Shown here: positions 398-29,869 of the stretch, one piece after another
Layout of the letters: each line of letters opens with the position of its first letter
Position numbering within the stretch: the first letter of the stretch is position 1
Assembly: GCA_039810425.1 (NCBI GenBank)
Contig: JBDHWW010000023.1
Location: 1 to 52,103 of the forward strand
From: Pseudobdellovibrionaceae bacterium
Lineage (GTDB): Bacteria; Bdellovibrionota; Bdellovibrionia; Bdellovibrionales; Bdellovibrionaceae
DNA: 52,103 bases
Direction: 5' to 3'
Position numbers and translations under genes: made by a program
Notes under the pieces: model-generated
What the model saw: the letters and a program-made list of their open reading frames with translations, nothing else
Databases searched by the model: none
What the model was told of the DNA's origin: nothing

Positions 398-2689
398 TTA
401 ATCAAGCAGACAGGCTTCTTGGGCAGGACGCATCGGAGCGGGTGCCTTTAAGTAACGTTTGAGCTTCGATTCAAGAGTGGAGGATTCTACCGGCTTGGTG
501 ACAAAATCATTCATGCCAGCTTCGATGCATTTTGTTTGATCTTCCTTAAACGCGTTCGCGGTGAGGGCGACAATAGGAATATCCGAAATTGGCTTGGCTA
601 ATTTCCTGATACGGCGGGTGGCCTCGTAACCGTCCATCTCGGGCATTTGACAATCCATGAAAATTAAATCGTACGAGAAAAGTTGCAGGGCCTTCAGCGC
701 CTCAATGCCGTTTGCCGCCACATCCACGTTGCAACCGATTTTTTCCAACATCAAGAGGGCTATTTTCTGATTGATCGGATTGTCCTCAACCAGTAGCACG
801 CGCGGTTTATTCACGACATACTTCGAAACATCCACAGTGGGGATTTTCATCGGCTCATCCAGGCGAATGTTGGTGATGTGAAGGACCTCAAGCAGGCATT
901 TATAGAGACTTTGCTGAAGAACTGGTTTTTTGAGATAATTAATCCTTTGAATCGGTGATAAGTGCGCCAAGTTGTGTGTGCGTTCCACCAGGTACACAAT
1001 CGGAATTTCAAAGTTGCGTGAAATGTTACGCAGAACTTTGGTTTGCTCTTCGGGCTTAAACGGCAAATTCCCCTGATCGAGGATAAGAGCGATTGTCTCT
1101 GGTGTCGCGGTCACAGCACTGATATCGCGCCCGCCCCCTGGGGTGTGAGGGTTAAGGCTGATGACTTTAAGTTGCAGCTCTAAATATTCTTGTAAGACCG
1201 GATTGCGTGTCAGAATCAAAACATCTTTGCCGAAGAAAGATTCCGGCAGTGGATTCTCGATGGGCTGTGTGTTGATGCCTTCCATTTCCACCCGGAACCA
1301 GAACGTCGAGCCCTTGCCCGGCGTGCTTGAAACCCCGACTTCGCCGCCCATGGATTCTGCGAGCTGCTTACAGATGGAAAGCCCCAATCCCGAACCACCG
1401 TAGCGGCGCGTGGTTGAAGAGTCCGCCTGGGTAAATGGCGTGAACAGGCGACTGAGCAAACGAGGCTCAATGCCGATACCGGTGTCCTTTACTTCGAAAC
1501 TCAGAGAAATATGCTTTTCATTCATATGGAGCATGGAGCATTTCACCGCAATGCTGCCACTCGGGGTAAACTTGATCGCATTATTAAGTAAGTTTAGAAG
1601 AATCTGTTTAAGACGTGCCGGGTCGCCCTTAATTAAACGTGGAATTTTCGGATCGATAAAGGTGACGAGTTCAAGCTTTTTCTGGGCCACATTATCAGCC
1701 ACGATGTTAGCGATATCCATATAGATAGAGCGGATATCAAATTCAATGGACTCTAAGACAAGTTTACCGGCTTCAATCTTGGAGACATCCAAAATATCGT
1801 TAATCAATGATAACAACGTACTGCTAGAGCTGCGAATCGATTGGACATAGTCCTTCTGGTCATAAGAAAGCTTCGTGTCGAGCAACAAAGAAGTAAAACC
1901 GACAATCGCGTTGAGGGGCGTCCGAATCTCGTGACTCATGGTTGCGAGAAACTCTGACTTTGCGCGGTTGGCGCGCTGAGTTTGATTGATGGCTTCTTTC
2001 AGGCGGGTCGATTTGTGTTTTGAAGTCTCAAGTAACAGAGCGACGTTTTTAATATTTCCATGTGAAATCATCAGCAATAAGATACTACAGACCGCAATTG
2101 CGAGCAGTGTCCAGCCGAGCATGCGGTGTGAATGGACTTGTTTGTCAAAAAGGGCCCCGCGGGCGTGCACGTCGTTCTCGTTCATGGTAAAGGCGATCTC
2201 TTGAAGCCGACCCTCATAGGGAGAAAGCGAATCATACATAAGGTCTAAATTTTGGTGATCCTTTGGGCGCGCTTTTGCCACGAGGGGGGCGAGGGCTTCC
2301 AAAGTCTGGTTTAGATCTTTGAGGCTTTTGATGGCGCCGGGAATCGCCGCCAGCTCTTTGTAAAGATCGGAGTTTTTCTCATAGACGGTCGCATGAACAC
2401 GAAGGTCATCGAAGCGGCCTTTAAAATCCAGGCGGTCAATGAGCTCGCGGTGATACAAGCCCATTCCAATCAGAAATCGGTCAAAATGATGGAGAGTTTG
2501 AGAAGCAACAAAGTAAGGATCCGCCAGATCGTTCACGGCACGTTCCACACGGCTGTCGGGAAGGGTTTTAAAATATAAAACCGAACTCCCTCCGGCAAAG
2601 ATCACTACGAACGCCATCAGAAAGATGTACGAGAGCTTTGGCGCGAAGGGTGTGTTAATAGCTGTGTTTTTGCGTAATAGTCGAAACAT
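398..2689 (-). CDS. Membrane-bound hybrid sensor histidine kinase (2 TM, HisKA, HATPase, degenerate receiver, canonical receiver)
   Basis: H-box [15 protein letters not shown]-box [15 protein letters not shown]1 DTGIGI, F-box FTPFTQAD, G2 [11 protein letters not shown]-terminal receiver LLVEDN...FMDCQMP...TKP; two hydrophobic segments flank ~150 aa. ATG 2689 preferred over TTG 2743. Confidence 0.95.
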
Positions 2690-2829
2690 ATTTAATACGC
2701 ACCATAAAACTTCTTTGAAGAAAAACAAATTTGAAGATGGCAAGATGAAGAAAAAATCATGGTTGTGAAGGTTTCTTCGAAAATATCCAATACGGGCATC
2801 GCAAAAGCTCGATGAGTTGTCGATTTTTC

Positions 2830-2951: not shown

Positions 2952-3464
2952 ATGGACTTTTATAACTTACAGGAGAGCGATCATCGTCTGATTGAGCAGA
3001 CCTTGAGTCACCGTTTAGGCGGTGTCACGGGCGCTCCGGACTATAAGGAAACTCTCCGACGTCAATTCTACAACTTCGACCGCGTACTGAATAAGAAAAA
3101 TATTCTCCTGGCGGAAGAAGACCCTCGTATCCAGCGTGCCATGCAGAAAATGATTTTAGAGGCAAATCAGGACGCTCAGTGCTGGATTGTGGACTCAGTG
3201 GACGAGATTGGGGATCTGCTCGATCAAAAAGAGTGCGATTTATTAATCGCAAATTACTATTTGTCAGAGGACGAGATCGACTACGAATTTTGGGAGATGG
3301 TCCGTGGCCGCTATCCGCGGATGGAAGTCATCATTCTTTCCCATGTGAATGACCGTGAATATTATGAAGCACTAGTGAAGATGAGCCAGGAGGGCCACGA
3401 AGGCCGATACCAGCCATTTTCAACGAAACTCAAACACTTTTTTGAACACGTCTTCGGAGGTTGA
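2952..3464 (+). CDS. Atypical (pseudo-)receiver domain protein with N-terminal extension
   Basis: ILLAEEDP...CDLLIANYYLS...IILSH; phosphoacceptor Asp replaced by Asn; paralogue of 6996-7535; RBS GAGGGGG. Confidence 0.8.
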   Translation: MDFYNLQESDHRLIEQTLSHRLGGVTGAPDYKETLRRQFYNFDRVLNKKNILLAEEDPRIQRAMQKMILEANQDAQCWIVDSVDEIGDLLDQKECDLLIANYYLSEDEIDYEFWEMVRGRYPRMEVIILSHVNDREYYEALVKMSQEGHEGRYQPFSTKLKHFFEHVFGG

Positions 3465-3465
3465 T

Positions 3466-4218
3466 ATGGAGATGGTAAAAGCCTCAGGAAATCAGATGGA
3501 CATCCTTTTTGAGGGGATGCCTCCGAATCCAAAAGTTGAATTCATGATCAGAACCAAACTGGCGAAAGTAACGGACATGTGTCCGGATAATTCTTTTATA
3601 CAAACAAAGGTGAAAGACCTTGGATCCCGCTTTGCCGTGGAAATTCTGGTTCGCCATGTTTTAGGACAATTTCTAGCTTACAGCGAGGAGAGAACTTTGG
3701 GAGAAAGTGTCAACCTGTCTGCATCACAAATGTATGAGCAAATTAAGTCTTGGCGGGAAACCCGCTACCTGGATCCCGAAAAAGCGGTGGGAAATCTCAA
3801 GGCATTGATTGTCGATGACGATCCAATTTCAGTGAAACTGATTCAATCCATTCTCGGCCAAAGCGGCTGCGAAACGGTGGTGGTTGACAACGGCCAGGAC
3901 GCGGTGGACGAGCTCTTTGAGCATGCCTACGATTTGATCGTCCTCGATTGGATGATGCCGTCGATGAACGGCCTCCAGACGATTCGCATGCTCGATGAAA
4001 CCGCGGATTTAAGCGCGACCGGGATCCAGAACAAAAAGGTTCCTGTGTTGATATTCTCTGCCAGTCCGCGCTCGCAGATCGTCTTTCCAAAGAGTAAGAC
4101 CTTCCGCAAGATCGGCTATCTGCAAAAAACCAGTACTTACGACTCCATTCGTAAGACCACGGATCAGTTCTTAGAGAATCTACGGAAAATGAAAGAGACG
4201 GCCCTTGTAAATCAGTAA
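3466..4218 (+). CDS. HPF/RaiA-like N-terminal domain fused to a receiver domain
   Basis: N-terminal ~100 aa (MDILFEGMPPNPKVEFMIRTKLAKV...) fits the HPF beta-alpha-beta-beta-beta-alpha pattern; canonical receiver LIVDDD...LDWMMPSMNG...FSA...QK; GGAGG at 3456-3460 supports ATG 3466. Confidence 0.75.
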   Translation: MEMVKASGNQMDILFEGMPPNPKVEFMIRTKLAKVTDMCPDNSFIQTKVKDLGSRFAVEILVRHVLGQFLAYSEERTLGESVNLSASQMYEQIKSWRETRYLDPEKAVGNLKALIVDDDPISVKLIQSILGQSGCETVVVDNGQDAVDELFEHAYDLIVLDWMMPSMNGLQTIRMLDETADLSATGIQNKKVPVLIFSASPRSQIVFPKSKTFRKIGYLQKTSTYDSIRKTTDQFLENLRKMKETALVNQ

Positions 4219-4307
4219 CTAAGTAAGAAGTAAGAAGATTAACAATTAACAGTTTTAACAATTTGAAAGCAATTTCAAGGAAGAACATCAAGGAGAGAAG
4301 GAATATT

Positions 4308-5009
4308 ATGATGCCAACAGTTTTAGCAGTAGACGATTCAAGGGAGATTCACCCATTTTTGAAGACGGCGTTGAGTCAAACATGCTCATTGTTGCTTGCG
4401 GGATCTCTGAAGGAGGCGGAAGAAATTCTAACGAAGAATGAAGTGCACCTCATCCTGTTGGATGTGAGCCTTCCAGATGGCAGCGGTTTTGACTTTTGCA
4501 CGACATTGCAGAGTCAGGATTCCACGCAAAAAATTCCGGTGATTTTCCTCACAGGTAAAATTGGCGTGGGTGATAAAGTTCTAGGTCTCGCGCTCGGCGC
4601 TGAAGACTATGTAACGAAGCCGTTTGACGTCTTGGAGCTACGCGCCCGCGTGGAGTCCAAGCTTAAAAAATTCTTGTATTACGCCAAAGAAGAGACCTAC
4701 TTCCAGCGCGGCAGCCTGAAGTTCGAACTCTCGACGTATTCAATTTACTTGAATGAGAACAGCGGCAATCAAAAATTGAATATGACCCCGATCGAATTCA
4801 AACTTTTGCTGAAGCTGGCTCGTTCCCCAGGCTATGTCCTGAGCCGCGAACAGCTGATCGATAGTGTTTGGGGTGATTCGGTGTACATCGAAGACCGTTC
4901 TGTGGACCGTCACATCTCTTCGATTCGAAAAAAGCTCGGAACTTGTTCGTCTTATATCCGCACTGTTCCAGGATTGGGTTACCAGTTCTTAGCGGAGCAA
5001 CAGCACTAA
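4308..5009 (+). CDS. OmpR/PhoB-family response regulator
   Basis: Receiver VLAVDDS...LLDVSLPDGSG...TKPF plus winged-helix SREQLIDSVWG...DRSVDRHISSIRKKL...TVPGLGY. Confidence 0.95.
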   Translation: MMPTVLAVDDSREIHPFLKTALSQTCSLLLAGSLKEAEEILTKNEVHLILLDVSLPDGSGFDFCTTLQSQDSTQKIPVIFLTGKIGVGDKVLGLALGAEDYVTKPFDVLELRARVESKLKKFLYYAKEETYFQRGSLKFELSTYSIYLNENSGNQKLNMTPIEFKLLLKLARSPGYVLSREQLIDSVWGDSVYIEDRSVDRHISSIRKKLGTCSSYIRTVPGLGYQFLAEQQH

Positions 5010-5024
5010 TAATAAGGAGGACTC

Positions 5025-5375
5025 ATGGAAGGCCAGTTCGACGCGATTCAAAGCGTAAAGGCGATTGAGACTAACTACGGACCACAGGTAGCACGTGAAG
5101 TTGTACAGATTTTTATTGCCGATTATCCTGGCAAGATTGCGAAATTAAAAACCGCCATCGAAGAGGGTAATCAAGAACGAATCCGCTTCACCGCCCATGA
5201 TATTAAGTCTGGAACGCTCAGCATGGGGGTTACGCCCATGTCGGCGATCTGTGAAGAGATTGAACGTGATAGCGCGAAGATGAGCAAAGAAAGACTTCAA
5301 GAGTTGGCAACACAACTCGAGGAGAACTATGCTGATATCTCAAAGAGCTACGGCGAGTACCTCAATATCCATTAG
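5025..5375 (+). CDS. Stand-alone Hpt (histidine phosphotransfer) protein
   Basis: AHDIKSGTLSMG Hpt motif, predicted all-helical, 116 aa; RBS AAGGAGG. Confidence 0.9.
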   Translation: MEGQFDAIQSVKAIETNYGPQVAREVVQIFIADYPGKIAKLKTAIEEGNQERIRFTAHDIKSGTLSMGVTPMSAICEEIERDSAKMSKERLQELATQLEENYADISKSYGEYLNIH

Positions 5376-5413: not shown

Positions 5414-5448
5414 GAAAGAGCCAGTGGTGGCACTGGCTCTTTCTTTTT
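5414..5448. terminator. Intrinsic terminator between the convergent operons
   Basis: GAAAGAGCCAGTG-GTGG-CACTGGCTCTTTC followed by a T-run; a second hairpin AGCGGTG-TCAG-CACCGCT lies at 5383-5400. Confidence 0.8.
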
Positions 5449-5468: not shown

Positions 5469-5858
5469 TTATGCCGACGGGGAAGTCACAGGGGGTGGCG
5501 TATAATTTTCATACGCAGGCACTCGACGGCGCCGGCGGTCGTGGCGGAGGCGGTCGTGACTTTTGCCTAAGACCACTTTGAGGGCGTCGAAACTTGCAAC
5601 GATGGCTCTAAAGAGGTTCCGGTCCTGACGGGCCGTTTTATGGACTTTGTTACTCATTCCCGACTTCACGAAAATTTCGCATCGGTAGAGTCCTTGGCGG
5701 ATTTCCGTGCGGGCGCGGCTTCTTTCCAAACGAACGGTGATACGCAAATCACTGTCTGGTTGGATGAGTTTTTCGACAAGTGCGTCGATTTTATCATTGA
5801 TAAAATCCTCGGCGTACTCAGAACGGCGAATATCTTTAAATACAATTTCGGTGCGCAT
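5469..5858 (-). CDS. HPF/RaiA family ribosome-associated protein
   Basis: MRTEIVFKDIRRSEYAEDFINDKI...ITVRLE...YRCEIFV...DRNLFRAIVASFDALKVVL, with an Arg-rich C-terminus (RLRHDRRRRR); matches the S30AE/HPF pattern. Confidence 0.8.
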   Translation of the reverse strand: MRTEIVFKDIRRSEYAEDFINDKIDALVEKLIQPDSDLRITVRLERSRARTEIRQGLYRCEIFVKSGMSNKVHKTARQDRNLFRAIVASFDALKVVLGKSHDRLRHDRRRRRVPAYENYTPPPVTSPSA

Positions 5859-5861
5859 GAC

Positions 5862-6653
5862 TTACTCCATATCGATATTGAATTGGTAACCTAGACCTGG
5901 AATGGTTTTAATGTAATCGCCATAAGAACCTAATTTTTTCCTCACAGTATATATATGTTTGTCGATCGACCTTTCATTGATGTGGACCGTGCCACCCCAA
6001 ATGGAGTCAATGAGCTGATTCCGAGTGAAGATGCGGCCCGGTTTTTGGGCTAGGTGCAACAGAATGCGGTACTCAATCGGGGTCATGTTAATAAGTTCGT
6101 GCTTGTCATCTTTGATCGCATAGACCGAGTAGGTCATCGTATCAAAGCGCAAATGGCCGCGTTGCAACTGCAACTCATTACGGTCGTGTAAGAGCGATTT
6201 CTTTAGTTTAGATTCGATGCGGGCTTTCAACTCGAGGGGCACAAACGGCTTTGTAATGTAGTCGTCCGCCCCAAGGCTGAGTCCCAGAATCTTATCTGTG
6301 ACACCGGTCTTGCCGGTGAGAAAGATTACGGGAACGCGCGATGTCGCGGGATTGGTTTGCAAGTCGTTGCAGAAATCAAAACCGCTGCCATCCGGAAGCA
6401 TCACATCAAGCAGAATGAGATGAATCTCCCGGCTTTCTAAATAGTCTTTGGCCTCTTTCAGACTGGAAGCGAAAAAGAGGTGGAGATCTCTTTCGAGGGA
6501 GCCGCGGATAATGACCTGGTATTCGGCCGAGTCCTCAATCACCAGGACATTGGGAATAAATGCTTGCACATGACTTTCAGGGACCTTTTCCGCCGTTCTA
6601 TATCCGTAGTCCCTGAAGCCACTCACCAGCTGGTTGCTATCCATGTTAGTCAT
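5862..6653 (-). CDS. OmpR/PhoB-family response regulator with ~30 aa N-terminal extension
   Basis: VLVIEDS...LLDVMLPDGSGFDFC...TKPF; winged-helix TRNQLIDSIWG...IDKHIYTVRKKLG...TIPGLGY; close paralogue of 4308-5009. Confidence 0.95.
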   Translation of the reverse strand: MTNMDSNQLVSGFRDYGYRTAEKVPESHVQAFIPNVLVIEDSAEYQVIIRGSLERDLHLFFASSLKEAKDYLESREIHLILLDVMLPDGSGFDFCNDLQTNPATSRVPVIFLTGKTGVTDKILGLSLGADDYITKPFVPLELKARIESKLKKSLLHDRNELQLQRGHLRFDTMTYSVYAIKDDKHELINMTPIEYRILLHLAQKPGRIFTRNQLIDSIWGGTVHINERSIDKHIYTVRKKLGSYGDYIKTIPGLGYQFNIDME

Positions 6654-6670
6654 CTAAAATCCTCCGTGTT

Positions 6671-7009
6671 TTAAAATATCTCTAAGTCCATGCTTGTATC
6701 GTAGGAATGACTCTGGCTCCAAAAGCGCATTTGCGCCGACAGATCGCTGATGGCCGCATCCAAGGCCGCCGCAACGACTTCGTCTTCTCCGGACGCAAAG
6801 AGCAGATCCTTTTCGCTGGCGAGGTTGAGCTGCACCAAATAGCGATCATCAAGGTCGACGATTTTGGCTGTGAGGCTGCAGTTGTTTGGACATTTCTCCA
6901 GTAGAAACGTCAGTTGCCCGCTGACGAAAAGTTTCAACTCCAGATTCGGTTCCAAGTTTTGGTAAATCAAAGTCATGTTTTTATTCGGTATCATACTAGT
7001 CTTTTCCAT
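6671..7009 (-). CDS. Stand-alone divergent HPF-like domain protein (acidic)
   Basis: Aligns by eye with the N-terminal domain of 3466-4218 (PN...CPxN...K..DL..R..V...Q...W); GGAGG upstream of ATG 7009. Confidence 0.65.
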   Translation of the reverse strand: MEKTSMIPNKNMTLIYQNLEPNLELKLFVSGQLTFLLEKCPNNCSLTAKIVDLDDRYLVQLNLASEKDLLFASGEDEVVAAALDAAISDLSAQMRFWSQSHSYDTSMDLEIF

Positions 7010-7535
7010 GATGAACTCCTCCGAAGATTTCCTTGAGATAGCCATTGAATTTCTCAGGCGAGAACGGCTTATCAAAGAAGGGTGGGGGGTACTCGAAGTT
7101 CTTGACGATCTGTTGGTAGCGTTCGCTCCCGATGCCAGAGGTGATCACCATATCGACGGCTGGAAATTTTTCGCGGACGATTTCCCAAAGCTCCAGACTG
7201 TTCTCCGTCGGTGAAAGATAGTAGTCGGCGATTAATAGATCGCACTTCTCTTTTTCAAGAATGTCGAGGGCTTCATCTATGTTCGTTGCCAAAAAGCATT
7301 TAATATCTGGATTGAAATTCTTAACGATATGCCTAAGCCCCAGTAAAGAAATCGGATCGTCCTCGACGATCAGAACTTTTTTGCTGGCGCGGATCTTTTG
7401 CATTTCGAGGAAGTATTGCAGGTATTCGTTAAACTCGGAGTTAATCTGCGTTGTATCAATGAGGTTGTTTGCCGGATCTTTTCGATAAGACAAATGCTTT
7501 GAAATATTCGATTTGACTGTCGAATCTTCTTTCAT
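6996..7535 (-). CDS. Single receiver-domain response regulator with N-terminal extension
   Basis: VLIVEDDP...CDLLIADYYLS...VITSG...FDKPF; intact D/(T,S)/K residues. Confidence 0.88.
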   Translation of the reverse strand: MKEDSTVKSNISKHLSYRKDPANNLIDTTQINSEFNEYLQYFLEMQKIRASKKVLIVEDDPISLLGLRHIVKNFNPDIKCFLATNIDEALDILEKEKCDLLIADYYLSPTENSLELWEIVREKFPAVDMVITSGIGSERYQQIVKNFEYPPPFFDKPFSPEKFNGYLKEIFGGVHHGKD

Positions 7536-21100: not shown

Positions 21101-24100
21101 CTAGTGGTTAAGCGGGCTTGTCCGTTCGGGCGGAATTTCTGATCCCAGCAGAATCTGAATCGAGTGGTTTTTGCCGTCGTCCGCGAGGGGAATGGGTTGA
21201 CCAACGGCCAGTGTTTTCCCGTCAAGCACGATTGCCGGTCCTCCCCGGGAAACACCGGCCGGGTTTTCAACCAGGATGTTGTAGGTTGCCGTTTTATGAC
21301 GGTAGCGAATGCGGAAGCTTTTCCATTGCGGAGGAATGTGCGGATCGAGCGAAAGCTCTTCGCCGCGGAGTCGGAGCCCGAGCATGTACTCAAGGCCCGC
21401 GCGGTAAAGCCATCCCGCGGAGCCCGTGTACCAGCTCCAGCCGCCGCGGCCCAGATGCTGTTTTTGCGAATAAACGTCACCGGCCACAACATAGGGTTCG
21501 ATCTTGTAGCGCGCCACTTGTTCCGGGGAGTCGCCATGAAGGATCGGGTTGATGAGTTGAAACATCTCATGCGCCTTTGCGCCGTTCCCGAGCAGGGCAT
21601 AGGCGATGATCACCCAAGCCGCCGCGTGGGTGTACTGACCGCCGTTTTCTCGGACTCCCGGCAGATAGCCTTTGATGTACCCGGGATCGTGATCGGTTTT
21701 ATCAAACGCCGGAGTGAAGAGCTGAATGATTCGCGCGTCCTTGTTCACAAGATATTTTTCCAATGCCTGCATCGCATGGCGTGCGCGGGAAGGTTCCGCG
21801 GCCTCGGAGATCACCGCCCAAGTCTGCGCCAGGGAATCGATTTGACATTCCTGATTCTGGATCGAGCCGAGAGGCGTGCCATCGTCGTAGTAGGCGCGGC
21901 GGTACCAATCACCATCCCAGCCTTTATCTTCAAGGGCTATTTTTAATTGAGCGGCATGGTTGCGCCAGTTCTGCGCGCGCGGTGTTTCGCCGCGAGCCTC
22001 GGCGATGGCGGCGAACTGAATCAGATTTTGGTGCAGGAACCAGCCGAGCCAAATGCTTTCACCTTTGCCGTCTTTGCCGACCCGGTTCATGCCATCGTTC
22101 CAGTCGCCACTGCCCATAAGGGGGAGTCCCTGCGCGCCGGTTTTGAGACTGCGATCTAAAGCGCGCGCGCAGTGTTCAAACAGGCTCGCGCTTTCTTGCG
22201 AAATGGCCGGAGTGAAGTACGAATCTTCCTGCTCTTGAGTCAAGAGGGGACCTTCGAGGAAGCTTGTTTCTTGATCCAGGATCGAAAAGTCTTTTGTGAC
22301 TTGCAAATAGTGAAAAGTCGCAAACGCCAGCCACAAGAGGTCGTCTGAGAAATGCGTGCGAACCCCCCGGCCCAGAGGGGGGTGCCACCAGTGCTGAACG
22401 TCACCCTCAAGAAACTGGCGGCTGGAGGCGCGCAAAATGTGTTCACGCGCGGTTTCAGGCATGGAAATAGTGAGCGCCATCACATCTTGCAGCTGATCGC
22501 GGAAACCAAAGGCGCCGCCGGCTTGATAAAACCCGGCGCGCGCCCAGTAGCGGCAACTGATGTTTTGATAAAGCAGCCAGCGGTTTAATAACAAGTCAAA
22601 AGATTTGTCTGGGGTTTCCACTTGAACCTTGTCCAGCCAATCATTCCATTGGGCGATGACCTTGGCGAGAATATTTTCAGTGAATTGATTGCGAAGCTCC
22701 AGAATGGTTTCGCGGGCCTCTTCCCGGCTTGCCGCTTGACCGAGGATAAACGGGATTTTCACCGCGGCTCCGGGGCCGATCACAATATCCGTCTGAAAGG
22801 CGCCACAGGGATCAAAGGCGGCTCCGGTCCGGTTTGAAAGCTGTTCGCTGCGAAGAATTCCAAGCGGGCGGCGAAGACTGCTGTTTCTACCGATAAACTC
22901 GCGGCGGTCCCCGGTCATAGTTTGTTTGTGGTTGAGGAATCCGGCAAAGGCGATACGGGTTCCATACTCGTTGTGACGGGCGTTGAACGCAAACATCGCG
23001 CCGGTGTCGCTATCCATCTCAGTCACTGTGGTCGGTGCCATTGTCGCCCGCGAAAATCCCAGGAGCCATTCGACGTACGCATAAATAGACAAACGCCGCC
23101 ATTGACTGGAACGGTTTTCAAGCCGGATCTCTGAAATCTTCACCGGCAGGTCCATCGGTACAAACTGAGTGAGTGTGCTATGAATGCCGTGCGAGAAATG
23201 TTCAAAGCGCGAATACCCTTGGCCGTGGCGGGCGATGTAGGTGGCGTCTTTCACCCGGATCGGAAGGGCGGTGGGGCTCCACAAACAACGTGAATCCAAA
23301 TCAAAGAGGTAAAAGCTTTCACCGCAAGGGTCGCTGACCGGATCATTCGACCAGGGCGTGATTTGATTTTCACGGCTATTCATCGCCCAGGTGTAACCAG
23401 AACCACTTTCGGAAACCTGAAAGCCGAACTTGCCGTTTGAGATGACGTTGATCCAGGGCGCGGGCGTGACATCGTTTTCATTTTTAAACACGATGACGTA
23501 CTCACGGCCATCCGGAGTAAAGCCACCCACGCCGTTAAAGTATTCGAGCTCTGGAGTTTCAAGCGGTGGCGCTTTATCGTGACATTGAAACTCCCGGCCC
23601 TCCGCGGGCGGGCTTAGCGGGTGAAGCGTGCGGTTGACCTGCTCGGACAGGCTTCCTTGGCTGGCAAAAAGTACGACGCGTGCCTCGGTGTAAAGGGCCA
23701 GGCGATCTTCACGCGTCAGCAGATCTTCGCGGAGAATGAACACTTTTCCGCGGGACTGCGGCACCGCCGCCGGTGGCGGCGGAGTGTGAACCATGGCTTC
23801 AAGCATTTGCTGAAGTTCTTGCCCGTAGGAATGTTCTTTGCCGTTCATAATGACAAGATCCACAGTGAAGCACTTCATCGCGAAAGACTCTTGCGCCTTG
23901 AGAAGCTGGCGGATGATGGTGCGGTCTTCCTGTTCTTCAACGCGCACAAGAATGATCGGGAAGTCGCCGGAAATACCATGGGCCCAGAGCTGTGTCAGGT
24001 CGCGTTTGTTATGTTTTAGGATTGAGCTTGAAGGACGTAGGGAAGAATCCAAATAAAAAAGTCTCGAGGCCAGGCGCTGATAAAGATGGGCTTCGTCGGG

Positions 24101-27100
24101 CTCGATATTGAGGTAGTGCATTTTTACTTGGGCTTGGGCCCAGGCCAGAGAAGAAACCCGCTCGTAACTGCCGGTTTCATGATAGCTTTCGGCTAGCCGT
24201 AAGATTTCATCGCGGGAAGGGGCCACCGCCGTCGTGAACTGAAGGGTGGTGCTTGCTCCCGGCTCTAGATGCACGCGGGTGCGGAGGCTAAAAACCGGAT
24301 CCAGAACCGCACCGACGGACTGGGTGAGTTTTTCGCCGGTCTTCAGAGCTCGTGCATTGCGAATGTCGCGTCCGCGGCCCAGGAATTTCATGCGGTCTGT
24401 TTCATACTCGGTTTCAAAGTTCGTGGGATTTTGTAAAGAAAGGATATGCGCGGCCCATAGCTCGGTTTCATTTCCTGAGCGGGGGCGGCGGCGGGCCATC
24501 AGAGCCTGGTGTTCGGCAACGTAATCGGTTTCCATGAAAAGGTTTGAGAACGCCGGATGAGCCACGTCCGCGGCTTGCGTGTTCAACACGATTTCAGAAT
24601 ACGAAGTCACCTCAAGTTCGCGAGGTGCATCGGATTCATTGGTCAGAGTTAAGTGGCGGATTTCCGCATTGGACTCGGGTGAAATTAAGATCTCAAGCTT
24701 TGAGTGAATCTCGTCCTCTTGGCGTTCAAATAAAACCCGGTCTTCGGCAAACGTGACTTCATAACTTTCCGCGGCTTGGCCCAGGGGCTGATAAGTCGCT
24801 GACCATGTGAGGTTTTTATCCCGGTCCCTAATAAAGAGATAACTCCCCCAATGATCTTGAGTGACGTCTTCGCGCCAGCGGGTCACCGCAAAATTCTGGA
24901 AGCGGCTAAAGCCTGAGCCCGCAGAGGTGAGCATGATAGAGTAGTTTCCATTTGACAGCAGTTGCGTGCGCGGAGTCGGGCGGTCGGTGCTGTGATAGCG
25001 GCGGGAAACAGTCGCAATCTCGGCGCGAACAATCGCGTGGTTGTGGTCCCCCGCCGCGGGAATCACGCCCACGGCTCGCGGAGTGCGTTCTTGCAGCAGG
25101 ATTTCAGTTGCCTGCACCAGCGGCTCGGCATGAAAAAGCCGGCACATGTAATTGTCAAAGAAGTAGTTCGTCAGGGAAACCAGTGACATCCCCTGATGAT
25201 GAGCCATATAGGCTTTCACGATCGAAAAACGCTGGCCGGTCGGCAGGCGTGAACTTGTATAGTCAATCGCCTCGTAGAAACCATAGGGCCCATTGGCGCC
25301 CAGACTTTGAAGCCGCCGCAAATTCGCGGCAGCTTCCGCAGGGTCGTACATTGCCGCCAGCAATGTTGCGTATGGCGCAATGACCAGGTTCGCTCCAAGG
25401 CCGCGTTTAAGGGCCAAGTCTGGAATTCCAAAGTTCGAGTACTGGTACGTCATATGGAGATCGCGCTTATTGTACGCGGATTCTGAAATGCCCCAAGGGA
25501 CGCCCTTTTCCTGGCCGTAGGAGACCTGCCGCTGAATCACGAGGTCGCAGGTGTTTTTAATGAGACTGCCTTCCGGAGTGTTCATAACCAGCGAGGGCAT
25601 CAGGTATTCAAACATCGACCCCGACCACGAGATCAGAGCTGAGCCATTTTCCACTTGCGCAAGACTCCGCCCCAGGCAGAACCAGTGACCCGCCGGGACG
25701 TCGCCTTTGGCAATAGCGATAAAGCTGAGCAGCCGCGACTCAGAAGCCAAGAGATCATAGTAACTGACGTCAAGGGCATTTTCAAAGACCCTTAAACCAA
25801 TCGAAAAAAGTTTGCGGTTCTTGTCGAAAAGAACACTGAAGTTCATGTTTTTAAAAAGGCTATAAGAGATTTTTTGCGCGTGTTTGATTTTACCGGAAAG
25901 GGTTTGCGCGGCGTGGATTGAGCTTTTGAGACACTCTGTGAGTTGTTCCATTGTCTCGGCGGCTTCAGGGGGCAGCGGCGCATGGAGAGCTTTAAAGCTC
26001 TCAAGCCTTTCAAGAATTTGCCCGCCGTGGCCGGCGATTTTTTCAAGCGCCGTGGTTTTAGAAAGATCTTTTTGAATCTCTTTCCAGCTTTTTTGCATTT
26101 CATCCGGACCGGCAATCGGTTGGACCGCATACTCCGTCCAAGCAAGAAGCGAATGATAATCAACGGCAAGATTAATAATGTCGCCGTGGATATTCAGCGC
26201 CCAACTGGCGATTTCTTGATGCGCGGGAGCCGGATAAAGCTGCCCGGCCTCTTGCTGAAGTTGCGAGGCCTGGGCCTTGAGGTCCCGCCAAGTGAAATCA
26301 TTTAACTGCTTTTCGGACGCTTGCAAAAGGCCGTGCTCGAGATTCTGGGTTCGCGTGATCAGGTTTTTTTCCGCAAGAGTCAGATCTTTGCTCTTCGTCT
26401 TTTTATGCAAAGCTTGCTTGAAAAGGCGTAAGCTCTCTAACGGACCCAGCGTCAGGGAAGACGCGGTCATGGGGTGAGTCAGCATTTCTTCCAAACCGCG
26501 GGCAACGGCGATCAAATGTCCCGCGAGATTGCCACTGTCGACGGCAGAAATGTATTTCGGATCGAGCGGCCGCAAGCTTGTGGTCTCATACCAGTTATAG
26601 AAGTGCCCGTGATGCTTTGGCAGGCGTTCCAGGCTTTCGAGGGTTCTGTCAAGACGATGGACGGCATCCGAGAGGCCGATCCAACCAAACATTTTCGCGG
26701 AAATCACCGAGAGCAAGTAAAGGCCGAAATTCGTCGGCGAGCTTCGATGAGCGACGACCGGCTGGGGTTCTTCTTGAAAATTATCCGGCGGTAGGAAGTG
26801 ATCTTCGGCAGTGACGAAGGTGGCAAAGAAGTGCCAGATCTGACGAGCCGCCAAGTACAGAGCTTCGCGCCCTGCGGAGTCCACGGGATTTCGCTCTTCC
26901 TCTGCAAACGGTCGGCTGACGGCTTGGGCATAAAAAGGCGAGAGCAGCCAGACAAAGAAAAGCACCGTTGCCAGCACCATTTGAAACGGTTTGGTGGAGG
27001 CAACAACGACGACGGCGCTGAAGGTTAGGAAAAGACCGCCGCGCATGCCGATGAAAAAACTGCGCAGCCTTAAGTCCGCATTGGATTTTACTTGAGCCGC

Positions 27101-29869
27101 AGTGGTCCACTCCAAAAGATGTTTATGGCTCACCGTCAGCCGGTACAGAGTTCTAAAGATTGCATCCAGATTCATCCACGCGTGATAGGGTAAAAGCAAA
27201 AGTTGAAGCATCGCCCGCTGCGCGCCCTTTGTGAGGTCGTCTAAACTGAACTGAAGATGCTCTTTGAAATGCACGCTGCGCTTTTTGCTCCAGATATCGG
27301 CAATAAAAGTAATCAGGACGGGCACAAAAAGAGATCCTAGGGAGAAGCCCGCCCAGATCCAGGCAACGGATAAAAAACTTGTCAGCGCAAATACCACCAA
27401 AAGAAAAACCGCCGGCGCGACAAGCGAGCGGCGGAGGTTGTCGATCATTTTCCAGCGGCTGAGGGCTGAAATAGATGAGCCGCCACGGCCTAAGATCCAT
27501 GGCAAAAGTTGCCAGTCGCCGCGCACCCAGCGATGGCTGCGAAGCGCTGCGACCATAGTGTGTGCCGGGAATTCTTCGAAAAACTCAACGTCACTGAGAA
27601 ACCCCGCGCGGGCATAGCTTCCTTCAAAAAGATCGTGACTGAGGAGGGAGTTCTCAGGAATACGCCCCCTCAGCGCTTGATCAAAGACGCGAAGATTGTA
27701 AATGCCTTTTCCGGTGAACGAGCCTTCATCAAAAAGATCCTGATACACATCAGAAACGGCCGAAGCATAGGGGTCGACCCCAGAGGGTCCAGACGAGAAA
27801 ACCTGAAACAGAGAGCCTTCATGCAGACCAGGGAGTGTCGGTGTAATCCGCGGCTGCAATATGCCGTAGCCTTCCGTCACCCGTTGTTTTTCGCGGTCGT
27901 AGCGGGCTTCGTTCAAAGGATGCATCATTGTTCCGACCAACTGAGCTACACAGCCCTTCGGAAGACGCGTATCCGCATCAAGAGTAATCACATAGCGAAT
28001 ATTTTCCGGGATTTGCTGAGGATAGTCCGGGAGGGGAATAAATGTCGTGTCTGATTCCCCGAGCAAAAGACGATTGAATTCGCAGAGTTTTCCGCGCTTT
28101 CGTTCCCAGGCAATCCACTTTTCTTCGCTTTCGTTATAAAGACGGCGGCGGTGAAAGAGAAAGAATCTCGTGCCGCTTCCGGGGACGGGGCCATATTTCT
28201 CATTCAGTTTTTTAAGCCCTTTTGTCGCATATTCCAAAAGCGGCAGGTCCGTTGGCGTGCTCTGGCTGGTGGCATCCCCCCAGTCGGAAAGAATGGCATA
28301 GTGCAAGAATCCCGCCGGATTCGCAAGATAGTGAATCTCCAACTGTTCAAGCTGCGTATCAATTCCCCGGCGGGAAGATAGAAATGTCGGCACGACAACA
28401 AAGGTTTTTCCTTCTGCGGGAATGCCGTCTTCAAGATTTAAGCGCGGCAGGTGTGTCGGGCCTAAAAGAGCCACGGTCAGGCGATTGAGGATACTCATCC
28501 CCACTTCGGAAGCAACCACGCCTCCTAAAAGGACGAACGTCAGGATTTGCCACTGGCTCAGAGCGCTTGTGTGGGTGGCAGAGAGGGGGGCGAGTAACAA
28601 CAACAAGGTCACAGCGGCAAGGCCGCCAAGATAGAGTTCTAGTGCGCTCCGGGTATAAGCACGCGCCAGTTTTTCACGGAACGTCGGGCGAAAAGCAATG
28701 CGTTTTTCAAGCTCCCGGCGCCCTTGGGAAATCAGGTAAAAGCCCAGTTCACTTTTGCGCGGATCGGTTTGGTTTGCAGGAGCCTGGGTGATTTCCAGAA
28801 GTGTTTGCGAAATCTCAATTTGCGTGAGCGGCGAATGACGGTGCAGATGTTCAAGGACGTGGCGATAGCGGTCACGGGTGGCAAAATCCAGCCCGGGATA
28901 AAGGGGATGCCGGCGTAAGAGTTGATCAACGAGAGAGACTTCTTCAAAAAAGGCCTGCCAGTTGTAGGCTGAGATCCAGCGGCAACTGGTAATAATATTC
29001 CGGACCGTGCTATTGGCGGCGGCCTGGGCGCCATGCTCCAGCGCCGCGGCTTGGTCGGCGTTCAGTTGGCAGGTGCTGAGTTTGCGGTCATTCCAGTTTA
29101 AAATCGGATCAACCTGTGAATCCTGAAAACGCAAACGCTGTAAAAGCTGAACCGCGAACCACACCGAAAAGTTGATTTGCTCAAGGCTCTCAATGATGTC
29201 TTCATTTGTGCGCGCGGGGGCCTCGCCGAGACCCAACACTTCATCTGCAATACGATCGGCGGCTTTGCGCGCGGTTTGTGAACCGACGATCCGCACGGCA
29301 AGACGGCGCAGGTTTTCGATCATCACCACTCGCAAGGTGATAGGCACGGCCCAGAGCTCGCCAATCGTCAGGGGTTGTGTGGTTTGATACGCCAGCAAGA
29401 ACCGACGGAGGGCTTCCGGTTCAAAGTGGCTATCGGTGTGGCTCACATAGTGCCACATGATTGCGTAAACCCGCGGGAGTCCTTGGTGCTGGCCTTCGGC
29501 GAGCTTTGGCAGCTCTCGGTAATATTCCGGTGGAAGATGATCGTTAATATCTTTCAACTGGGCCCGGACGATGTGAAAATTATCAATGAGCCATTCCGCG
29601 GCGGGGGTGATGGCCTGCCACTCGTCGACGGCTTGGACAACCTGCTCGTAGGATTTTTCCAAGACGAGGCTATTTTCATAAATGCGTTGGGCGAGATTCA
29701 AGCCGCGCCGGGGGGCTTTGAGGAGTTTGTGGGATTCGGCGAGAGAGGCTGCCTGGGATTCAAGGCGGCTTATGCTAAACACTTCACTGCGAACAGGATC
29801 TTCGAAGTGGCTGAATTGTTTTTTCAGAAACTGGCTCTTGCGAAAATGGCGACGGAAATACTCCTTCAA
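21101..29869 (-). CDS. ndvB: Cyclic beta-1,2-glucan synthase (Cgs/NdvB/ChvB type; GT84 + glucoamylase-like cyclisation domain + GH94)
   Basis: 2922 aa; WERKRGKL, ITLDADT, LLSHDLFEG, RxxRWVRGDWQ (GT84), TM segments, SWSGSMFEYLMP/PWGISES/YMAHHQGM, FGFRDQLQD/GDWNDGMN/RENGGQYTH/WYTGSAGW (GH94); TTG start. Confidence 0.92.
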   Translation of the reverse strand: MKEYFRRHFRKSQFLKKQFSHFEDPVRSEVFSISRLESQAASLAESHKLLKAPRRGLNLAQRIYENSLVLEKSYEQVVQAVDEWQAITPAAEWLIDNFHIVRAQLKDINDHLPPEYYRELPKLAEGQHQGLPRVYAIMWHYVSHTDSHFEPEALRRFLLAYQTTQPLTIGELWAVPITLRVVMIENLRRLAVRIVGSQTARKAADRIADEVLGLGEAPARTNEDIIESLEQINFSVWFAVQLLQRLRFQDSQVDPILNWNDRKLSTCQLNADQAAALEHGAQAAANSTVRNIITSCRWISAYNWQAFFEEVSLVDQLLRRHPLYPGLDFATRDRYRHVLEHLHRHSPLTQIEISQTLLEITQAPANQTDPRKSELGFYLISQGRRELEKRIAFRPTFREKLARAYTRSALELYLGGLAAVTLLLLLAPLSATHTSALSQWQILTFVLLGGVVASEVGMSILNRLTVALLGPTHLPRLNLEDGIPAEGKTFVVVPTFLSSRRGIDTQLEQLEIHYLANPAGFLHYAILSDWGDATSQSTPTDLPLLEYATKGLKKLNEKYGPVPGSGTRFFLFHRRRLYNESEEKWIAWERKRGKLCEFNRLLLGESDTTFIPLPDYPQQIPENIRYVITLDADTRLPKGCVAQLVGTMMHPLNEARYDREKQRVTEGYGILQPRITPTLPGLHEGSLFQVFSSGPSGVDPYASAVSDVYQDLFDEGSFTGKGIYNLRVFDQALRGRIPENSLLSHDLFEGSYARAGFLSDVEFFEEFPAHTMVAALRSHRWVRGDWQLLPWILGRGGSSISALSRWKMIDNLRRSLVAPAVFLLVVFALTSFLSVAWIWAGFSLGSLFVPVLITFIADIWSKKRSVHFKEHLQFSLDDLTKGAQRAMLQLLLLPYHAWMNLDAIFRTLYRLTVSHKHLLEWTTAAQVKSNADLRLRSFFIGMRGGLFLTFSAVVVVASTKPFQMVLATVLFFVWLLSPFYAQAVSRPFAEEERNPVDSAGREALYLAARQIWHFFATFVTAEDHFLPPDNFQEEPQPVVAHRSSPTNFGLYLLSVISAKMFGWIGLSDAVHRLDRTLESLERLPKHHGHFYNWYETTSLRPLDPKYISAVDSGNLAGHLIAVARGLEEMLTHPMTASSLTLGPLESLRLFKQALHKKTKSKDLTLAEKNLITRTQNLEHGLLQASEKQLNDFTWRDLKAQASQLQQEAGQLYPAPAHQEIASWALNIHGDIINLAVDYHSLLAWTEYAVQPIAGPDEMQKSWKEIQKDLSKTTALEKIAGHGGQILERLESFKALHAPLPPEAAETMEQLTECLKSSIHAAQTLSGKIKHAQKISYSLFKNMNFSVLFDKNRKLFSIGLRVFENALDVSYYDLLASESRLLSFIAIAKGDVPAGHWFCLGRSLAQVENGSALISWSGSMFEYLMPSLVMNTPEGSLIKNTCDLVIQRQVSYGQEKGVPWGISESAYNKRDLHMTYQYSNFGIPDLALKRGLGANLVIAPYATLLAAMYDPAEAAANLRRLQSLGANGPYGFYEAIDYTSSRLPTGQRFSIVKAYMAHHQGMSLVSLTNYFFDNYMCRLFHAEPLVQATEILLQERTPRAVGVIPAAGDHNHAIVRAEIATVSRRYHSTDRPTPRTQLLSNGNYSIMLTSAGSGFSRFQNFAVTRWREDVTQDHWGSYLFIRDRDKNLTWSATYQPLGQAAESYEVTFAEDRVLFERQEDEIHSKLEILISPESNAEIRHLTLTNESDAPRELEVTSYSEIVLNTQAADVAHPAFSNLFMETDYVAEHQALMARRRPRSGNETELWAAHILSLQNPTNFETEYETDRMKFLGRGRDIRNARALKTGEKLTQSVGAVLDPVFSLRTRVHLEPGASTTLQFTTAVAPSRDEILRLAESYHETGSYERVSSLAWAQAQVKMHYLNIEPDEAHLYQRLASRLFYLDSSLRPSSSILKHNKRDLTQLWAHGISGDFPIILVRVEEQEDRTIIRQLLKAQESFAMKCFTVDLVIMNGKEHSYGQELQQMLEAMVHTPPPPAAVPQSRGKVFILREDLLTREDRLALYTEARVVLFASQGSLSEQVNRTLHPLSPPAEGREFQCHDKAPPLETPELEYFNGVGGFTPDGREYVIVFKNENDVTPAPWINVISNGKFGFQVSESGSGYTWAMNSRENQITPWSNDPVSDPCGESFYLFDLDSRCLWSPTALPIRVKDATYIARHGQGYSRFEHFSHGIHSTLTQFVPMDLPVKISEIRLENRSSQWRRLSIYAYVEWLLGFSRATMAPTTVTEMDSDTGAMFAFNARHNEYGTRIAFAGFLNHKQTMTGDRREFIGRNSSLRRPLGILRSEQLSNRTGAAFDPCGAFQTDIVIGPGAAVKIPFILGQAASREEARETILELRNQFTENILAKVIAQWNDWLDKVQVETPDKSFDLLLNRWLLYQNISCRYWARAGFYQAGGAFGFRDQLQDVMALTISMPETAREHILRASSRQFLEGDVQHWWHPPLGRGVRTHFSDDLLWLAFATFHYLQVTKDFSILDQETSFLEGPLLTQEQEDSYFTPAISQESASLFEHCARALDRSLKTGAQGLPLMGSGDWNDGMNRVGKDGKGESIWLGWFLHQNLIQFAAIAEARGETPRAQNWRNHAAQLKIALEDKGWDGDWYRRAYYDDGTPLGSIQNQECQIDSLAQTWAVISEAAEPSRARHAMQALEKYLVNKDARIIQLFTPAFDKTDHDPGYIKGYLPGVRENGGQYTHAAAWVIIAYALLGNGAKAHEMFQLINPILHGDSPEQVARYKIEPYVVAGDVYSQKQHLGRGGWSWYTGSAGWLYRAGLEYMLGLRLRGEELSLDPHIPPQWKSFRIRYRHKTATYNILVENPAGVSRGGPAIVLDGKTLAVGQPIPLADDGKNHSIQILLGSEIPPERTSPLNH

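Follow-up and report, generated by a model that had tools for sequence, protein, structure and literature searches.

An apparently undescribed fusion of a divergent HPF-fold domain and a receiver in a Bdellovibrionales signalling gene cluster

The window analysed here is the whole 52,103 nucleotide stretch of contig JBDHWW010000023.1 (assembly GCA_039810425.1, positions 1 to 52,103, forward strand) from a Pseudobdellovibrionaceae bacterium. It carries a gene in which an N-terminal domain of the HPF/RaiA fold is joined to a receiver domain, placed among genes of two-component signalling. The features of the locus are as follows.

398..2743, minus strand: hybrid histidine kinase (HisKA, HATPase_c and REC by Pfam), divergent, candidate phosphodonor
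2952..3464, plus strand: pseudo-receiver with the acceptor Asp changed to Asn (LIANYY), first gene of the predicted operon (Pfam, alignment)
3456..3460, plus strand: Shine-Dalgarno-like GGAGG within the 3' end of the upstream gene, 5 nt ahead of the ATG
3466..4218, plus strand: HPF-fold and receiver fusion gene, 250 aa, P0001 (ORF list, homolog alignment)
3493..3768, plus strand: HPF/RaiA-fold domain, residues 10-101 (model, structure matches, family alignment)
3769..3795, plus strand: variable linker, residues 102-110 (alignment, model)
3796..4209, plus strand: receiver domain of a lineage-specific subfamily, residues 111-248 (Pfam, alignment, model)
3946..3948, plus strand: codon of D161, the predicted phospho-acceptor (alignment)
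4263..5009, plus strand: OmpR-type response regulator in the predicted operon of the fusion gene (Pfam)
5025..5375, plus strand: stand-alone Hpt protein in the predicted operon of the fusion gene (Pfam)
5414..5443, no strand assigned: 13-bp hairpin, terminator-like on both strands, between two convergent operons (hairpin scan)
5469..5858, minus strand: basic HPF paralog (net +6) that closes the convergent operon; it exceeds the PF02482 cut-off with 28.4 bits
5862..6653, minus strand: second OmpR-type regulator, paralog of 4263-5009 (Pfam)
6671..7009, minus strand: acidic paralog (net charge -7) of the HPF-fold domain, encoded as a stand-alone gene and basic at 0 of the 6 helix sites (alignment)
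6996..7535, minus strand: receiver, paralogous to 2952-3464, that has Asp and Lys and overlaps the start of the 6671-7009 gene (Pfam, alignment)

The predicted operon runs in the order pseudo-receiver, fusion gene, OmpR-type regulator and Hpt. The ATG of the fusion gene, at 3466, lies one base past the stop codon of the upstream gene, and its placement together with the GGAGG suggests that translation of the two genes may be coupled. The convergent operon encodes, in order, the receiver, the acidic stand-alone HPF-fold domain, the second OmpR-type regulator and the basic HPF paralog. The two segments (2952-5375 on the plus strand, 5469-7535 on the minus strand) resemble inverted copies of one module made of receiver, HPF-fold and OmpR genes. 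Asp is kept at the acceptor site of the 6996-7535 paralog of the pseudo-receiver and of its orthologs at three other loci (L090-L092). The cluster is conserved in all three congeners, one of which gave no match to the pseudo-receiver. Elsewhere in the window, an ORF of 2922 aa lies at 21101-29869 on the minus strand. No sigma-54 promoter was found upstream of either operon; sigma-54-type sites across the whole window equal the number expected by chance, and 2 of 33 family loci had such a site, against 3.4% of random windows. A sigma-70 scan gave 5 sites where 8.0 were expected.

The fusion is not an assembly artefact: 31 full-length homologs share it (68-94% identity), and the junction of the two domains is spanned with zero mismatches by a public-run contig. 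The close homologs start at the equivalent Met, a search for longer homologs returned the close clade alone, and no plasmid match was found for the locus. A full-length model (pTM 0.56) contains both domains. The linker between them has a mean identity of 22% among close homologs and a pLDDT below 50 at residues 102-108. The C-terminal dimerisation domain of long HPF, which forms 100S dimers, is absent; the C-terminal part is the receiver, and no other Pfam domain exceeded its cut-off.

Neither Pfam nor NCBIfam matches residues 1-110, PF02482 and TIGR00741 included, and the N-terminal domain as a single-sequence query gave no match in the PDB. In a Foldseek search with the full-length model the matches were dominated by receivers, and the N-terminal domain was therefore folded alone; VIA-align with the full-length model placed PSRP1 at rank 44. 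An earlier note on this DNA, made from the letters and the open reading frames, had read the N-terminal domain as HPF-like and proposed structure prediction as a check. The prediction bears this out for residues 10-101: the isolated domain came out as an HPF/RaiA fold (pLDDT 88.6). Among 48,161 representative chains, the top 16 VIA-align matches of this model are all HPF, RaiA, PSRP1, MPY or RafH (Z 10.3-14.4), the best with an rmsd of 1.4 A across 97 residues. Foldseek with the isolated domain agrees, and the next class in VIA-align is that of the dsRBDs, from Z 8.5 downwards. Profiles point the same way. PF02482 gave weak matches in 14 of the 32 close homologs at a lenient limit of E<=5 (best E 1e-4), a 35-row domain profile against PDB sequences placed HPF/RaiA chains in the first 13 positions (best E 2.3e-4), and hhalign aligned the profile with E. 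coli HPF at a probability of 81%. These homolog matches, the profile ranking, the model and the fold matches together establish the HPF ancestry of the domain. Matches of NDUFA5 to a thin domain profile were dropped after a deeper profile and the fold search favoured HPF. ESM Atlas gave leads below 0.9 with the N-terminal domain, and receiver clusters alone with a full-length homolog.

PF00072 matches the receiver over residues 114-230 with E 2.6e-18 and a score of 66.6 bits (cut-off 30.2), and the receiver is CheY-like in the model, with Z 15.5 to receiver structures. The key residues noted earlier from the sequence are all in place, namely D117/D118, D161 in LDWMMP, S198 and K221. An alignment of 60 fusions spanning 17-90% identity shows no variation at D118, D161 and K221 and an acidic residue (D or E) throughout at position 117; at position 198, 57 fusions have S and 3 have T. 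Receivers usually signal through a face made of a regular helix 4 and a Lys-Pro turn. Here a Pro follows K221 in 8 of the 60 fusions, and in the predicted model helix 4 is a 3-residue turn at 202-204 together with a conserved I-x-F-P loop. The receiver belongs to a distinct, lineage-specific subfamily. It also occurs in stand-alone form, as in tandem beside the fused gene at seven loci (L159, L178, L180, L181, L182, L184 and L185).

The two domains are also found as separate neighbouring genes. A member of the receiver subfamily lies directly upstream of a stand-alone HPF-fold domain gene at L009, L020 and L103, and this side-by-side placement links the two parts functionally; L020 and L103 are near-identical, so that these amount to about two independent cases. 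The earlier note had described an output domain placed N-terminal to its receiver, the reverse of the usual order. The order stands, and the label of output is unproven, because domains associated with receivers can be inputs, and an HTH-REC order is known from archaea (PMC5847659, in the part of that text available). One alternative takes the HPF-fold domain as an input or tether, sensing a ligand or setting location, with the receiver acting as a phosphate sink or a CheY-like effector and the domain free of phosphorylation control. It would fit a receiver subfamily that can work on its own, as it does in all 32 genomes of one genus (g4), and a linker that is variable and modelled with low confidence. 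A quick tree of 112 columns, in which fused and stand-alone copies of the domain are interleaved, agrees with it as well. The tree has long branches and many open forks and is poorly resolved. Against this reading, fusion or two-gene adjacency recurs across several families of the order, and we regard it as very unlikely.

A two-domain search, with 41 loci examined, gave 29 fused ORFs spread over at least 27 genomes out of the order's 251; this is a lower bound, as 10 candidates were scored per genome, and the count becomes 25 genomes if three weak N-terminal matches (E about 0.01) are dropped. The domain family as such is present in 168 of the 251 genomes, mostly as short stand-alone frames. 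In a sample of the phylum the domain profile matched 60 of 201 genomes, with canonical HPFs accounting for some of the weak matches. In genomes of that sample from beyond the order, the matched frames reach 198 aa at most, too short for a fusion of an HPF-fold domain with a receiver. A domain search of 50% representatives gave 19 matches: 1 close and 12 distant fusions, 5 copies that are stand-alone or partial, and P0086 (3466 aa), set aside as a repeat artefact on account of its 8 short, repeated matches. A collection scan with the full alignment matched the receiver pattern and mostly returned unrelated receivers, and 8 Bdellovibrionales loci from it were used. Five genomes reached via unrelated loci gave two weak matches. 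In the quick tree the canonical HPFs form one group (SH-aLRT 92), with the tryptophan-bearing family of the fusion outside it. The family has its own signature, P40 and W-[KR]-x-x-R (here W96-R97-x-x-R100), in which P40, W96 and R100 are fixed. The domain of the fusion thus belongs to a separate HPF-fold family whose members are mostly stand-alone.

Could the domain be a decaying remnant or an accidental fusion? It has no Pfam match and sits on long tree branches, as a remnant might. Yet its pN/pS is 0.02-0.17, like that of the receiver (six pairs from four genomes), and for this reason the domain is under purifying selection and not decaying. Mean identity among close homologs is 83% for the domain and 85% for the receiver, and the fusion recurs in the genomes counted above. 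The pN/pS and identity values largely refute this reading, to which we assign a near-negligible probability.

The earlier note had further proposed that phosphorylation gates ribosome binding. In such a scheme the protein would be a ribosome hibernation or translation-inhibition factor, and a two-component system would have a ribosome-binding domain as its output. The mRNA/tRNA channel of the 30S subunit would be bound via K31 and K34 of helix 1 and, where helix 2 ends, via K94, R97 and R100, with a weak affinity switched on or off by the phosphorylation state or dimerisation of the receiver. The fold matches ribosome-bound HPF structures (Z 12-14), and K31, K34, Q92, K94 and R97 stand at conserved HPF positions. 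HPF chimeras are reported to bind ribosomes in the cases of HPFcold, HibA and AHA (PMC13392368, PMC13324472 and PMC13728122, in the parts available). Three HPF-fold genes share one signalling cluster, kept in all four genomes of the genus.

The residues that grip the ribosome speak against it. In S. aureus HPF the conserved basic residues of HPF/YfiA are K27, R30, K84 and R87; double mutants of either pair keep ribosome binding and the quadruple mutant loses it (Basu and Yap, PMC4889938, as given in the available sections). Basic residues are likewise described as making the rRNA contacts of T. thermophilus HPF (PMC6177447, available part). The S. aureus numbering was taken from the PDB alignment and transferred to E. 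coli HPF and then to the fusion, with the same register in hhalign. The four residues correspond to K26, Q29, K80 and R83 of E. coli and to K34, D37, Q88 and E91 of the fusion protein. One of the four is therefore kept (K34), two are charge-reversed (D37 and E91), and the remaining one is Q88. Taking in the neighbouring positions, the HPF basic sites of the domain read K31, K34 and D37 in helix 1 and Q88, E91 and S95 in helix 2.

This loss is a property of the whole close clade. In the order given, the four sites are basic in 32, 0, 0 and 0 of 32 close homologs and in 12, 1, 2 and 4 of 18 distant fusions. In 30 canonical HPFs of the phylum the counts are 24, 26, 23 and 12; these are the 30 best PF02482 scorers, so that the set leans to consensus, and even so the R83 site is basic in 12 of them. 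All 32 close homologs have D or E at site 29 and Q at site 80, and 31 of them have D or E at site 83. At the site of E. coli K87 (S95 here) all 30 canonical HPFs have a basic residue, and the 32 close fusions all lack one. Counted over the three helix-2 sites, close homologs have no basic residue in 32 of 32 cases and distant fusions have none in 11 of 18 and one in 7 of 18, whereas 26 of the 30 canonical HPFs have two or three. In the Y-x-[AS]-I-D motif of helix 2, Tyr and Asp are replaced by G79 and N83 in all 32 close homologs. Of the 30 canonical HPFs, 28 keep Y71, against 0 of 32 close fusions and 0 of the 12 distant fusions of the protein search; the D75 site is D or E in 30 of 30 canonical HPFs and is lost, like Y71 and K87, in all 32 close homologs. 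The distant archaeal AHA, by comparison, still uses structurally equivalent rRNA-contact residues (PMC13728122, available text). A basic residue equivalent to K31 is kept in 5 of 18 distant fusions only, and the genome already has a canonical HPF.

It should be noted that a partial loss of these residues need not abolish ribosome binding, because either double mutant of the S. aureus protein still binds. Judged by its residues, the domain would not qualify as a hibernation factor, although it is HPF by fold and ancestry. Gating of ribosome binding by phosphorylation is thus unsupported by sequence, with three of the four basic residues lost and two of them charge-reversed. The proposal is lowered and not refuted, and we consider it unlikely. 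Most of the charged residues that grip the ribosome are lost, and the domain is therefore better explained as a binding module repurposed for a signalling relay; a role as a direct translation switch is the less likely of the two.

HPF-fold genes number at least six in this genome, on contigs C31, C2, C58 and C23 (three genes), with a weak seventh candidate on C5 (26242-26583). The canonical HPF, on C31, keeps 5 of 6 basic sites. In the cluster itself, the best candidate for a true ribosome binder is the basic paralog at 5469-5858. Its strand 2 is followed by a long insertion and its tail is rich in Arg; the genome search, which gave 4 matches, did not recover it. Stand-alone family members adjoin Hsp20 at 3 of 20 loci (L105, L107, L109), which would suit a role in hibernation. 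They are divergent from a dihydrouridine synthase gene at another 3 of the 20 (L110, L111, L114), and at L095 one lies upstream of a DEAD-box helicase gene with a perfect sigma-54-type site ahead.

The domain might instead bind some other RNA, such as an mRNA leader, a small RNA or tRNA, via a relocated basic surface, and would then make the protein a phosphorylation-controlled post-transcriptional regulator. ANTAR-type regulators, and not HPF, are the model for how this would work. The dsRBDs are the next structural neighbours of the domain (Z 6-8.5), and eleven basic positions are invariant or nearly so in the close clade (K23, R29, K31, K34, K48, R55, R63, R76, K94, R97 and R100). Nearly every family member has basic residues at the R97 and R100 sites, the latter being basic in 26 of 26 stand-alone copies and 17 of 18 distant fusions. 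In several Bdellovibrio loci a stand-alone receiver of the subfamily directly follows an RNase Y-type gene (L171:1447-1908, L005, L006 and L007), an adjacency that may be plain synteny. Most of the clade's basic positions, however, are gone in the distant fusions, and W96, R100 and P40 may have a structural role, as their helix register suggests. The fused domains are neutral to acidic, with a mean net charge of -0.9 in close and -2.8 in distant fusions against +1.8 in canonical HPFs; E. coli HPF itself is at -1, and many stand-alone family members are strongly basic, up to +12. We regard binding of another RNA as unlikely too, a little more so than gated ribosome binding.

The reading that we prefer, and to which we give an even chance, is that the fusion protein is a response regulator of a multi-step phosphorelay of the Bdellovibrionales, in which a repurposed or pseudo-HPF domain serves as a protein-binding module switched by phosphorylation. 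In brief, phosphate would pass from the hybrid kinase (398-2743) via Hpt (5025-5375) to D161, and phosphorylation there would remodel the unusual beta4-loop-beta5-helix5 face of the receiver. The remodelled face might alter the dimer state or the access to the HPF-fold domain, which would bind a protein partner and not the 30S decoding channel. The likeliest partners would be members of the same relay, for example the coupled pseudo-receiver or the OmpR regulators, so that the protein would tune the timing at which the relay fires. An effect on the ribosome would then be indirect, for instance through expression of the basic HPF paralog.

What argues for such a repurposed module is that the rRNA-binding basic patch is lost and yet the domain is under purifying selection. 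The acidic stand-alone paralog is nonetheless kept in all three congeners, despite its charge and lack of basic sites, and a canonical HPF is encoded elsewhere in the genome. Two-component genes lie within 1.5 kb of the fused gene in 7 of 7 loci scanned, and a homolog of the hybrid kinase is found in 8 of 10 wider loci, five of which are shared with the 7-locus scan; one locus has no relay gene. The split-gene loci fit as well. Five of the 29 fusions (L177, L179, L181, L182 and L187) carry an extra 85-110 N-terminal residues with a hydrophobic segment, suggesting that their products may be membrane-anchored proteins of the same two domains. Other observations weigh against this reading. The eleven basic residues of the close clade could serve nucleic-acid binding, the S. 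aureus double mutants indicate that partial loss may be tolerated, and helix 2 retains two or three basic residues in 3 of the 24 fusions taken from genomes. The basic stand-alone members, the consensus-leaning canonical set and the negative net charge of E. coli HPF all soften the contrast with canonical HPFs. Finally, with a basic HPF paralog among its genes, the cluster is plausibly concerned with ribosome dormancy.

The life cycle of Bdellovibrio-type predators switches between hunting, during which the cells do not grow, and growth within the prey. If the fusion protein does bind ribosomes, Asp phosphorylation would be tied straight to ribosome hibernation, a link that our literature searches did not find in print. 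A phosphorelay would then switch translation directly in a predatory bacterium through a changed contact made of helix 1 and the W-R-x-x-R end of helix 2, and the fusion would belong to an unrecognised HPF paralog family present in about two thirds of the genomes searched in the order. If it does not bind ribosomes, the HPF fold would have been turned to signalling, and the fold alone would not imply hibernation. Either way, a divergent HPF-fold family is exposed.

The architecture is real, conserved and apparently undescribed. Full-text literature searches, within the papers and main texts that they covered, gave no description of an HPF-fold and receiver fusion, and no paper was found whose full text has S30AE together with receiver. 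Judged by titles and the opening of abstracts, the hibernation and HPF literature on Bdellovibrio held nothing on the topic. Bacterial HPF chimeras have been described, namely HPFcold (HPF with a cold-shock domain), HPF-SigE and HPF-CBS (Chan et al., 10.1101/2025.11.04.686544), and in archaeal HibA/AHA (4xCBS-HPF) the HPF is joined to an AMP-binding module (PMC13324472, PMC13728122). The words receiver and response regulator do not occur in the main texts of these three papers, nor does receiver in the HPFcold paper (PMC13392368). As far as its available text goes, the architecture census of Chan et al. begins from PF02482, a profile that misses the HPF-fold domain of the fusion protein.

The fusion protein shares with the HPF chimeras an HPF fold with an accessory stress or signalling domain and, going by the available text of Chan et al. 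(10.1101/2025.11.04.686544), a coexisting canonical HPF. The accessory domain here is a phospho-acceptor receiver, whereas the chimeras in the texts available have a CSD, an ECF sigma or CBS. HPFcold, HibA and AHA have been shown on ribosomes according to the same texts, whereas the main contact residues are absent from the domain studied here. With HPF/RaiA (YfiA)/PSRP1 (PF02482 Ribosomal_S30AE; PDB 6eri_BV, 8rd8_D, 4v8h_AX and 2ywq) the domain has the fold in common. Unlike them, it has no PF02482 or TIGR00741 match and lacks the helix-2 basic patch, Y71 and D75, and it has the P40 and W-[KR]-x-x-R signature and an attached receiver.

C-terminal receivers and lineage-specific domains associated with receivers are known from LtrR HTH-REC, FilR1 and HalOD/MetOD (PMC5847659, available part). 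Like these, the fusion protein has an intact receiver after another domain and a narrow phyletic range; unlike them, its associated domain is of HPF ancestry and its receiver, of a distinct subfamily, has a helix-4 region that is remodelled in the model.

Some non-canonical dsRBDs, such as Staufen dsRBD5, Loquacious dsRBD3 and that of TRBP, serve in protein binding. Their alpha/beta fold is related to that of the fusion domain (Z 6.4-7.7; a likeness of fold, with no sequence homology shown). By analogy only, we suggest that the fusion domain may follow the same pattern, in which an RNA-binding fold is turned to protein binding after the loss of its basic residues.
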